Shown here: in pieces, positions 18,001-24,000 of the stretch
Position numbering within the stretch: position 1 is the first letter of the stretch
How the letters are laid out: each line of letters opens with the position of its first letter
Source of the DNA: Escherichia coli
GTDB taxonomy: Bacteria > Pseudomonadota > Gammaproteobacteria > Enterobacterales > Enterobacteriaceae
Strand: one strand, 5' to 3'
NCBI RefSeq assembly: GCF_029227855.1
Contig: NZ_CP074356.1
Length of the DNA stretch: 64,000 nt
Program-made: the position numbers

Positions 18001-21000
18001 TTCCGCGTCAATGTCGAGACAGAAGCTCAGCAGCACGAGTCTTCACGCACCAATGGCGGCGCGCTGATCAAGACTATCAATATTCGCGTTGAGAACCCTA
18101 ACCTGCATGATTTAGCCATTAAAGATGTACCGATTCTCAACGGCGACAAAATTATCTGCTCGCGTCTGAAACGCGAAGAAACCCTAAAAGTTCCTTCGCC
18201 AGATACCATTATTCAACTGGGCGATTTGCTGCATCTGGTGGGTCAGCCAGCGGATTTACATAATGCGCAACTGGTGATTGGTCAGGAGGTCGATACTTCG
18301 CTGTCCACGAAAGGCACTGATTTGCGCGTCGAGCGTGTGGTGGTCACCAATGAAAACGTGCTCGGAAAACGTATTCGCGACCTGCACTTTAAAGAACGCT
18401 ATGACGTTGTTATCTCGCGCCTGAACCGTGCCGGGGTCGAACTGGTCGCCAGTGGCGATATCAGCCTGCAGTTCGGCGATATCCTCAATCTGGTGGGGCG
18501 TCCGTCCGCAATTGATGCCGTTGCCAATGTGCTGGGGAATGCGCAGCAAAAACTGCAACAGGTTCAGATGCTGCCAGTGTTTATTGGCATCGGGCTTGGC
18601 GTATTGTTAGGTTCTATTCCCGTCTTTGTGCCTGGGTTCCCGGCCGCGTTGAAACTGGGGCTGGCGGGCGGTCCGCTGATTATGGCGTTGATCCTCGGGC
18701 GTATCGGCAGTATCGGCAAGCTGTACTGGTTTATGCCGCCAAGTGCCAACCTCGCGCTGCGGGAGCTGGGGATCGTGCTGTTCCTCTCGGTCGTTGGTCT
18801 GAAATCTGGTGGGGATTTTGTAAATACCCTGGTCAATGGCGAAGGGCTAAGCTGGATTGGTTATGGTGCCCTGATCACCGCCGTTCCGCTGATTACTGTT
18901 GGCATTCTGGCGCGGATGTTAGCCAAAATGAATTACCTGACCATGTGCGGGATGCTGGCAGGTTCCATGACCGATCCTCCGGCGCTGGCGTTTGCTAATA
19001 ATCTTCATCCAACCAGCGGTGCGGCGGCGCTCTCTTACGCCACTGTCTATCCGTTAGTGATGTTCCTGCGCATTATCACCCCCCAATTACTGGCGGTGCT
19101 CTTCTGGAGTATCGGTTAACTCTTTTCCGGGTGGAGTCGCCGTAAATGGTACTCCACCTGGTATTCGCTGGCATTTCTGAACATCACTGAATAATTCAAA
19201 AACTCCCCGCTCTCGCTATATGACAACGAGGTGATCCGCAGCAGTGGCGTGTGTTCCGCTACCTTCATTTGCCGCGCCAGCAGTCTATCGGCGAGCACTG
19301 GCGTCAGGCTTTCATAATTACCGCCAATCAAAATCCCGCACTCTTGTTCAATATATTCAAACTTCGACCCTTCCAGATGTTGCAGCGAAAGATTACGGAA
19401 CAGTTTTACCGGCATATAGCTGTCTTCCAGCATCAGCGGTTTCCCTTCCACAAAACGAACGCGACGGGAGAAGTAGATCTGCTCGTTGATTTGAATCCGT
19501 AACTGGCTGGCAATGGCCGGAGGCGCAGGCATGATTTCAAAAATCAGCACCTGGCTGGTGACCGTTTTTCCCTGCCGTTTTAACACCTCCACCAGCCCGG
19601 TCAGGCTGGCGGTTTGATGCAGTACATCTTTGCGCACCAGGTAAGTGCCGCTGCCGTGGCGGCGGACCACCAATCCCCACGCTACCAGCAGGTCAATCGC
19701 TTTACGGATGGTCATCCGGGATACTGCAAATTCTTCCGCCAACTTTTTTTCACCGGGAAGAAGGCTGTTTAGCGTGAAATCCGCGGAATTAAGTCGAATT
19801 CTTAACCGCTCCGCAATGCTTTTGTAGATCATCTCTAGATCTCTTTTTTGCCTGCAAGCCCGGGTAATGCGCCCACAAGTTCTGCTTAATCGATTGAAAA
19901 AACATCTTTTTTTTAAAGATGTGTTCGATGCTGTGTACCAGTGCTCACAGATGTCTACTTTTTCGCGAAAACGTAGATCTCTACCGCCCAACGAAAAGCA
20001 TGAAAGCGATCACGAATCCCATTGGGTCGTCATGTTCTGCCGATCGCATCTTCCTATCCTCGCTCCAGGCCTGCCGCATAACCAATCAGGCTTCCTACTT
20101 ACAGAATTGAGAAAAGAGGATGTGGAAATGCTCAGTCAAATTCAACGCTTTGGCGGCGCGATGTTCACGCCAGTGCTGCTGTTTCCCTTCGCCGGGATTG
20201 TGGTGGGTCTTGCCATCTTGCTGCAAAACCCGATGTTTGTCGGGGAATCACTGACCGATCCGAACAGTTTATTCGCGCAAATCGTACACATTATTGAAGA
20301 GGGCGGTTGGACGGTATTCCGTAATATGCCGCTGATTTTTGCTGTCGGTTTACCCATTGGCCTTGCTAAGCAAGCGCAGGGGCGTGCTTGTCTGGCGGTG
20401 ATGGTGAGTTTCCTGACCTGGAACTATTTCATCAACGCGATGGGAATGACCTGGGGAAGCTACTTCGGCGTCGATTTCACTCAGGACGCGGTGGCAGGTA
20501 GCGGTCTGACAATGATGGCCGGGATTAAAACCCTCGATACCAGCATTATCGGCGCAATTATCATTTCCGGCATTGTGACGGCGCTGCATAACCGTCTGTT
20601 CGATAAAAAACTGCCGGTTTTTCTCGGCATTTTCCAGGGGACGTCTTATGTGGTGATTATCGCCTTCCTGGTGATGATCCCCTGTGCCTGGCTGACATTG
20701 CTCGGCTGGCCAAAAGTACAAATGGGGATTGAATCTCTGCAAGCGTTCCTGCGTTCGGCGGGTGCGCTTGGGGTGTGGGTTTACACCTTCCTCGAACGTA
20801 TTCTGATCCCAACCGGTTTACACCACTTCATCTACGGACAGTTTATCTTTGGTCCGGCAGCTGTTGAAGGCGGCATTCAGATGTACTGGGCGCAGCATCT
20901 GCAAGAGTTCAGTCTGAGCGCCGAGCCGCTGAAATCGTTGTTCCCGGAAGGCGGTTTTGCCCTGCACGGTAACTCAAAAATCTTTGGTGCCGTGGGCATT

Positions 21001-24000
21001 TCTTTAGCGATGTACTTCACTGCCGCACCGGAAAATCGGGTAAAAGTGGCGGGCTTGCTGATTCCCGCAACCTTAACCGCCATGCTGGTGGGAATTACCG
21101 AACCGCTGGAATTTACCTTCCTGTTCATTTCACCGTTGCTGTTTGCGGTACACGCTGTGCTTGCGGCCTCAATGTCGACCGTGATGTATCTCTTTGGTGT
21201 GGTGGGCAACATGGGCGGAGGTCTGATTGACCAGGTTTTACCGCAAAACTGGATCCCGATGTTCAGCAACCACGCGGATATGATGCTGACCCAAATCGCC
21301 ATTGGGTTGTGCTTTACCCTGCTGTACTTCGTGGTTTTCCGCACCCTGATTCTGCAGTTCAACATGTGCACGCCGGGACGTGAAGATGCGGAAGTGAAAC
21401 TCTACTCAAAAGCCGAATACAAAGCCTCGCGAGGCCAAACCACCGCGGCAGAGCCAAAAAAAGAGCTGGATCAGGCTGCCGGTATCCTGCAAGCCCTGGG
21501 CGGGGTCGGCAATATCTCCAGCATTAACAATTGTGCGACGCGTCTACGCATTGCACTGCATGACATGTCACAAACGCTGGATGACGAAGTCTTTAAAAAG
21601 CTGGGAGCGCACGGCGTCTTCCGTAGTGGCGATGCCATTCAGGTGATCATTGGTCTGCATGTATCCCAGCTGCGTGAACAGCTCGATAGCTTAATTAATT
21701 CTCATCAATCAGCAGAAAATGTTGCCATTACGGAGGCAGTATAATGACCAAATTCTCAGTGGTTGTCGCAGGCGGTGGAAGCACCTTTACGCCAGGCATC
21801 GTGTTGATGCTCCTGGTGAATCAGGACCGTTTCCCGCTTCGTGCACTGAAATTTTATGATAACGATGGTGCGCGGCAGGAAGTGATTGCCGAAGCCTGTA
21901 AAGTCATCCTTAAAGAGAAAGCGCCGGACATTGCGTTTAGTTACACCACCGATCCTGAAGTGGCATTCAGCGACGTTGATTTTGTCATGGCGCACATCCG
22001 CGTCGGCAAGTACCCGATGCGCGAACTGGATGAAAAAATCCCACTGCGCCACGGTGTTGTTGGTCAGGAAACTTGCGGACCCGGCGGAATAGCGTACGGC
22101 ATGCGTTCCATTGGCGGCGTCCTGGAACTGGTGGATTATATGGAAAAATATTCACCAAATGCCTGGATGCTCAACTACTCCAACCCGGCAGCCATTGTCG
22201 CAGAAGCCACGCGTCGTCTGCGCCCGAATGCGAAAATCCTCAACATCTGTGACATGCCAATCGGTATTGAAAGCCGGATGGCGCAAATTGTTGGGCTGCA
22301 AGATCGCAAACAGATGCGCGTGCGCTACTACGGCCTGAACCACTGGTGGTCGGCGATATCCCGCAGTTTCAGAAAGGGTTAATGAGTCAGCAAGTGGCGG
22401 TGGAAAAACTGGTCGTGGACGCCTGGGAACAGCGTTCATATCAGCACCTGTGGCAGGCGATTACGTTGTCGAAAACGGTACCGAGCGCCTCGGTCGCCAA
22501 AGCTATTCTGGATGAGTTGCTGGAGGCCAACAAAGCGTACTGGCCAGAGTTACGTTAATTGTGTGGACTGGCATCCGTTGGGTGCTGGTCCGTATTCTTT
22601 AGCACGGCTGACGGCGCATAACCAAATTTATGTTTAAAGGCTTTACTGAAATGAAAGGAGTCGAAGAAGTTGAGCGTATCAGCGACTTCGCCAACCGAGT
22701 TTCCTTGTTGCTTTAATAGCGATAGCGCCAGATCCAGACGCGCATCGAGGTAATATTCTTTCGGCGTCTTGCCGGTATAGCGTAAAAACAGACGACGCAA
22801 CCAGGCTTCGCTACAGGGGATCGTGGCAGCCATATCAGCTACGCTCCAGCGTTGTTGCAGACTGGCATGTAAAGTGGCAATTAATTTTTCAATTTGCCGC
22901 CGTTGTGGATCTTTTTTACCATCTGCGTACATAAGACAAATCCACTGATAAATAATTTTCGTCAGAAAAGCGACTGCCAGATTATTTTTTATTGCTTCTG
23001 GTGAAGTTATTAACTCAGCAACTTCGGTGAGTTCCTGATTATAAATTTCGCCATTATAAATAACGCTTTGCTGACCAACGGGAATATCCATCATACTGGT
23101 GGGGGTAAATTCCATCCAGTACTGTTCCCAGACTAAACCTTCACAGTGATAAGAGTGAATATCCATTGGCTTTAAGAATATAATACAGTTGCCATGCAGT
23201 GTTATTTGTTCGCCATTCTTTAAAAGAATTTTCCCACATCCTTGTACGGTATACACCGCAACCCATGAGTTGGCGATAAGCGGTTTCTTCTTGTCCCGCG
23301 GCCAGATCACCCGGTAATGCTCGTCGGCGTAGGTATGCCAGAGCGAGATCAGAGAAATTCCGCTGGAGATCACATTTTCGTTAATCAATAAGGGAATATT
23401 GTACGGAGTTTCGTTTTTTACATCTGAACTTTGCAATTTTCCATTCATTTTAATATCCCTCCGGCGAATTATGCCACAACCTGAACTTAACAGAAAACAA
23501 TCCGTTCAGGGATACGACGTTTGTATTTTAAGAATCTGACTGCCTGACCCGACGCATTTTACCTCTCCCTATATTCATGCGTCCGGGACATAAACATAAA
23601 TAAGGGCTATGAGATGAATTCGTTACAAATCTTGAGTTTTGTCGGTTTTACGCTGCTGGTGGCGGTGATCACCTGGTGGAAGGTCCGCAAAACAGATACC
23701 GGATCGCAACAAGGCTATTTTCTTGCCGGACGTTCACTAAAAGCGCCGGTTATTGCCGCTTCGTTAATGCTAACCAACCTTTCCACGGAACAACTGGTCG
23801 GCCTTTCCGGGCAGGCCTACAAAAGCGGCATGTCGGTGATGGGCTGGGAAGTGACTTCAGCGGTGACGCTGATCTTCCTCGCGCTAATCTTTTTACCGCG
23901 CTATCTGAAGCGCGGCATTGCCACCATCCCCGATTTTCTGGAGGAACGTTATGATAAAACGACGCGTATTATCATCGACTTCTGCTTCCTCATTGCCACC

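Follow-up and report, generated by a model that had tools for sequence, protein, structure and literature searches.

In characterised alpha-glucoside phosphotransferase systems (PTS), an EIICB permease imports and phosphorylates alpha-glucosides, and an enzyme of glycoside hydrolase family 4 (GH4) hydrolyses the 6-phosphate product. AglA/AglB of Klebsiella pneumoniae and GlvC(MalP)/GlvA of Bacillus subtilis both pair such a permease with an NAD+/Mn2+-dependent GH4 phospho-alpha-glucosidase, and the glv locus of Escherichia coli is of the same type. In the literature, the glv genes of E. coli K-12 have already been termed cryptic or truncated. Here, we analyzed the glv locus in a stretch of 64,000 nucleotides from an E. 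coli genome (assembly GCF_029227855.1, contig NZ_CP074356.1), hereafter called the window. The region very likely represents the glv operon of E. coli, which encodes an alpha-glucoside PTS, in a degraded state that is common in the species. In contrast to AglA/AglB and GlvC(MalP)/GlvA, the glucosidase gene of the window is a deletion pseudogene, so that catabolism is not expected to reach completion.

The glvG remnant and its deletion junction

In the window, glvG (21744..22558, plus strand) is an 815-bp remnant of a 1323-bp gene for a GH4 6-phospho-alpha-glucosidase, as identified by annotation, alignment and tblastn. Its start overlaps the stop codon of the EIICB gene (TAATG). The N-terminal open reading frame (ORF) of 212 amino acids (aa; 21744..22382, plus strand) contains the GH4 NAD-binding domain as far as His200 (residues 1-200; matches to PF02056 and 6DUX), after which 12 residues are read out of frame before a stop codon. 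A C-terminal remnant (22334..22558, plus strand; tblastn, PF11975, 6DUX) corresponds to residues 367-440 of the intact protein and lies in the other frame, lacking both a start codon and a ribosome-binding site from the original gene; in the ORF listing it appears as a 70-aa ORF (22346..22558) in a different frame from the 212-aa ORF. When the window was searched by tblastn with intact E. coli GlvG, residues 1-208 were matched in frame 3 and residues 367-440 in frame 2. ORF listing, tblastn and the 6DUX matches agree with the first-pass annotation of this DNA, which had described the glucosidase as broken into a 212-aa ORF and an out-of-frame 70-aa piece and as too short for its family.

Intact glvG alleles of 1323 bp and 440 aa are present at the same locus and in the same gene order in BL21(DE3), O157:H7 FRIK2533 and E. 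coli C, and many E. coli genomes have a 1323-bp gene annotated there as '6-phospho-alpha-glucosidase'. Compared to the intact alleles, the window and K-12 show one gap of exactly 508 bp. Intact glvG carries the octamer GAACCACT at nt 594 and again at nt 1102, 508 bp apart, and the window keeps one copy, which marks the deletion junction (22337..22344, plus strand; alignment to BL21(DE3) and O157:H7). Codons 201 to about 369 are lost. As 508 bp do not make up a whole number of codons, the reading frame changes past His200, which explains the foreign residues, the early stop and the out-of-frame position of the C-terminal piece. In view of the direct repeats, a slipped-strand or microhomology-mediated event is the likely mechanism. 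The first-pass annotation had called the gene decayed: broken it is, yet the damage is confined to a single clean loss of 508 bp between the 8-bp repeats and is not progressive decay. The alignment against intact homologues and K-12 that had been proposed as a check returned this single deletion and no indels relative to K-12; it revealed no sequencing-type frameshift in a full-length glvG, and the permease ORF is undisrupted. For annotation, the value of this result is that the glvG lesion can be described as one repeat-mediated deletion of 508 bp instead of general decay.

The K-12 genes glvC-glvB-glvG' (b3683, b3682, b4556) lie at the same position between yidP and yidL and share the 815-bp remnant and the identical deletion junction with the window; the 3031 aligned bases of the window and K-12 contain no indel and 26 substitutions. 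The lesion is not strain-specific, but the same pseudogene as b4556. In a four-sequence alignment with 2431 shared bases, the window differs by 18 substitutions from O157:H7 and by 33 from BL21(DE3). As a pseudogene, glvG is already known: the K-12 annotation lists it as such, and in strains whose sequence is the same as that of the window PGAP marks it as frameshifted. A literature search on glvG as a pseudogene returned nothing relevant.

Domain matches locate the damage within the GH4 fold. The 212-aa ORF covers positions 2-182 of the 183 positions of PF02056 (E = 5e-67) and retains the GGGS motif of the NAD-binding Rossmann domain. In the 70-aa ORF, only the last 44 positions of PF11975 are left (168-211 of 211), and these are in the other frame, whereas an intact glvG allele matches positions 1-211. 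Against the K. pneumoniae 6-phospho-alpha-glucosidase 6DUX, the two pieces align with residues 4-210 and 375-442. Intact E. coli GlvG aligns without gaps to 6DUX over 439 residues (E = 6.6e-274) and to B. subtilis GlvA (1U8X) over 437 residues (E = 8.9e-224). By this alignment, Cys171, Asp172, His202 and Tyr265 of GlvA, which are reported to have catalytic and metal-binding roles in the structural work on 1U8X, correspond to Cys169, Asp170, His200 and Tyr263 in E. coli. The remnant keeps Cys169, Asp170 and His200, and Tyr263 falls within the deleted 508 bp. Judged from these residues and domains, a product consisting of the Rossmann domain alone cannot be expected to act as a GH4 hydrolase.

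Two further details of the glvG sequence were observed. In intact alleles, a Chi octamer (GCTGGTGG) starts 4 nt past the left copy of the 8-bp repeat (GAACCACTTTGGCTGGTGG; L004:3710-3745) and is removed by the deletion, which may be a coincidence. Between 21817 and 22055, five substitutions in the remnant (A25V, which is non-synonymous, and four synonymous ones) separate the window from K-12, BL21 and O157:H7. Four of the five recur singly in strain E2865 or E. coli C, which gives the cluster the look of a short tract acquired by recombination.

The EIICB permease and the split gene of K-12

Upstream of glvG, the permease gene is unbroken. The ORF listing gives an open frame at 19867..21744, and the start annotated by RefSeq in strain A15, which is 100% identical (WP_000952141.1), lies at 20128. 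The resulting fused glvCB ORF (20128..21744, plus strand) encodes an alpha-glucoside-specific EIICB protein of 538 aa, which bears out the single frame reported in the first-pass annotation. Both Pfam domains, PTS_EIIC (PF02378) and PTS_EIIB (PF00367), are found in one chain, and the protein matches NCBIfam TIGR02005 (alpha-glucoside-specific PTS transporter subunit IIBC) over positions 1-524 of 524 with 954.7 bits, the curated cut-off being 607.3 bits. It retains the GITEP motif at residue 322 and the EIIB motif NCATRLR from residue 468, with Cys469 as the phosphorylatable cysteine; the two motifs align with GITEP and CITRLR of PtsG.

As to the start site, no stop codon interrupts the frame in the 87 codons that precede the annotated start (19867-20127), and a purine-rich stretch (gagaaaagaggatg) is located just 5' of the ATG at 20128. 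Upstream starts of this kind probably account for database entries in which some orthologues have lengths of 556-583 aa.

In K-12, the permease is annotated as two genes, glvC (368 aa) and glvB (161 aa), as the first-pass annotation had noted. The split results from a C-to-T substitution at 21232 of the window: codon 369 (21232..21234, plus strand; alignment) is CAG (Gln) in the window and a TAG nonsense codon in K-12, and the annotated start of glvB is the in-frame Met378. A frameshift behind the split was ruled out by this nonsense change together with the complete lack of indels between both sequences. Within a set of 5426 complete E. coli genomes, on which all following population counts are based, a 55-nt probe centred on the allele detected the nonsense codon in 348 genomes, and among the matches listed nearly all were laboratory derivatives of K-12. 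Because the allele is, among the matches listed, nearly confined to these lineages, the split glvC/glvB gene model of K-12 should not be carried over to other strains.

These results suggest how the operon would have worked in its ancestral form and how it may have been lost. The EIICB protein would import and phosphorylate alpha-glucosides with a phosphoryl group presumably delivered by the general IIA-Glc (Crr), as in related systems, and the translationally coupled, NAD+/Mn2+-dependent GlvG would cleave the 6-phospho-alpha-glucoside. The loss of 508 bp between the two direct repeats has left a glvG gene that encodes the N-terminal Rossmann domain only, with the permease frame still open in the window and cut in K-12 by a later CAG-to-TAG change. 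With the hydrolase missing, the operon would yield no usable sugar and would be cryptic. From its sequence and from what is known of the family, the glv pathway is very probably non-functional for catabolism, and the reduction of glvG to its N-terminal domain supports the same conclusion of the first-pass annotation.

Allele frequencies, order of the lesions and alternative explanations

The glv region was matched in 4279 of the 5426 genomes. A 46-nt probe seeding solely across the deletion junction was found in 2616 of the 5426 genomes, while the deleted segment is retained in 1653 genomes (~30%); among the sampled genomes that keep the 508-bp segment, every annotated allele is an intact 6-phospho-alpha-glucosidase gene. 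About 1150 genomes (~21%) lack yidP-glvCB-glvG, with yidE adjoining yidL. The locus is polymorphic within E. coli, and the allele of the window represents its most frequent state. Since ~30% of the genomes keep the 508-bp segment and the annotated alleles sampled are intact, the utilisation of alpha-glucosides (sucrose isomers) may vary between strains. One example of the complete loss is ATCC BAA-2469 (L006:744-3361), where the whole glv locus is absent and yidE lies about 90 bp from yidL.

A further difference between the alleles affects the permease itself. At codon 238 (20839..20841, plus strand; single-nucleotide polymorphism in the alignment), the window and K-12 have CAG (Gln), whereas BL21, O157:H7 and E. 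coli C, which keep the 508 bp, as well as E2865 have Pro, encoded by CCG in the intact-operon alleles. Residue 238 aligns with the proline of GLHHIWNVPF in E. coli PtsG, and the conserved proline of this GLHHxxxxPF motif is thus replaced in the window. Among 120 representatives of homologue clusters, 113 have Pro, six have Gln and one lacks the motif (Pro in 113 of the 119 with the motif). In the complete genomes, the Gln238 allele was counted 1791 times and the Pro238 allele 2482 times. Given this substitution, the open EIICB frame is no guarantee of activity, and Pro238Gln may be a second, silent hit on the operon. It is consistent with relaxed constraint after the loss of glvG, but does not prove it.

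For the order of the lesions, strain E2865 is informative: its glvG carries the deletion, yet its EIICB protein (WP_000952127.1) is the same as in strains with an intact operon. Because of this combination, and because Gln238 is rarer than the deletion (1791 against 2616 genomes), the simplest order places the 508-bp deletion first, Pro238Gln within the deletion lineage and the K-12 nonsense codon last.

Several points weigh against this reconstruction. Individual strains were found to combine Gln238 with the deletion; beyond these, the association is deduced from allele counts. At 22160 and 22193, the window and K-12 carry T and C like BL21, and E2865 carries C and A like O157:H7 and E. coli C; across these six sequences, two different haplotypes accompany the deletion in the 180 bp upstream of its junction. 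This can be explained either by recombination near the junction or by repeated occurrence of the same deletion between the repeats, so a single origin of the deletion is not established. The proposed loss of function, for its part, is deduced from the missing domain and catalytic residue. No second GH4 copy was found by tblastn with intact GlvG in the 64-kb window, where only the two glvG pieces were matched, and a second phospho-alpha-glucosidase is possible elsewhere in the genome, outside the region searched.

Other explanations of the locus were weighed against a deletion pseudogene behind an open permease gene. That the glvG break is a sequencing or assembly artefact in a full-length gene would fit the RefSeq label of the feature, which simply reads 'frameshifted'. 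However, 508 bp are gone rather than one or two bases, and 2616 complete genomes that were assembled independently of one another, K-12 MG1655 among them, share exactly this junction; we reject this explanation with near certainty. The reverse polarity, an ancestral short glvG with a 508-bp insertion in O157:H7 and BL21, could draw on the higher frequency of the short form (2616 versus 1653 genomes). It is rejected just as firmly: the 440 aa of the long form align without a gap to the enzymes of Klebsiella (6DUX) and Bacillus (1U8X), whose biochemistry and structure have been characterised, whereas the short form breaks the reading frame and is without most of the C-terminal domain. More serious is the idea that the permease is inactive as well, owing to the Pro238Gln exchange beside GLHH, so that the whole operon and not glvG alone is dead. 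The prevalence of proline among the motif-bearing homologues and in PtsG speaks for it, as do the occurrence of Gln238 in two deletion-bearing sequences (the window and K-12) and its lower count compared to the deletion. On the other side, EIICB keeps every other hallmark motif and exceeds the TIGR02005 cut-off by a wide margin, and an allele as common as Gln238 could equally be a neutral variant. We consider an inactive permease a possible, but rather unlikely, addition to the loss of glvG.

The deletion-bearing genomes might, on the contrary, preserve a function. Selection could maintain the EIICB protein or the 212-aa NAD-binding fragment for a role independent of the hydrolase, possible candidates being sugar sensing, regulation via the phosphorylation state of the PTS, or uptake of another compound. 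In agreement with this, the EIICB ORF is open in the annotated deletion-bearing genomes sampled, and the differences between EIICB alleles are nearly all synonymous. These synonymous polymorphisms are, however, common to the intact-operon alleles and probably older than the deletion, so they are no evidence of current constraint; moreover, K-12 tolerates a nonsense mutation in the gene, about 21% of the genomes do without the locus and further truncated variants exist. Such a maintained role seems highly improbable. A broader proposal, to which we give only slightly more credit and which we still regard as improbable, sees in the locus a stepwise decay series within one species, with the intact operon, the glvG deletion, Pro238Gln and the K-12 nonsense codon as its successive states and the loss of the whole locus as a separate state. 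Here, the loss of the hydrolase would make the permease harmful, and the build-up of a non-metabolisable sugar phosphate would drive secondary inactivating changes; in the alternative version of this proposal, the EIICB gene still open in about 2600 genomes may serve a hydrolase-independent role.

Gene neighbourhood of the glv locus

The window is chromosomal E. coli DNA, and its positions 19500-23500 are 100% identical to several complete E. coli genomes. In one of these, strain A15, RefSeq annotates the order ibpA-ibpB-yidE-yidP-[PTS IIB/IIC]-[frameshifted CDS]-yidL-yidK-yidJ, and the matching interval of K-12 MG1655 contains yidP, glvC, glvB, the pseudogene glvG and yidL. There is no EIIA gene annotated in the glv locus of A15. 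A consensus promoter scan of 19800-22700 did not detect any sigma-70-like site, and its terminator-like hits did not exceed the background. On the left, yidP (19116..19832, minus strand; A15 RefSeq annotation) is divergent from the glv operon and encodes a regulator of the GntR family, to which it is assigned by NCBIfam matches that all fall below the equivalog cut-off; from its position, it is presumed to regulate the operon. The right-hand boundary of the locus is formed by yidL (22555..23448, minus strand; A15 annotation), which encodes an AraC-family regulator and is convergent with glvG.

Outside the window, the neighbourhood varies in several of the compared strains. In BL21(DE3), yidP is annotated as frameshifted (L003:568-1205) although glvCB and glvG are intact there, and the operon could be deregulated in this strain owing to the frameshifted regulator gene. 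A degenerate IS200/IS605 tnpA together with an intact TnpB/InsQ gene follows directly after glvG in E. coli C (L007:5948-7728), where it truncates yidL, and the same combination is located after the first 390 bp of glvC in M23917 (L005:5390-7116). In both E. coli C and M23917, the next annotated gene past these two genes is yidH.

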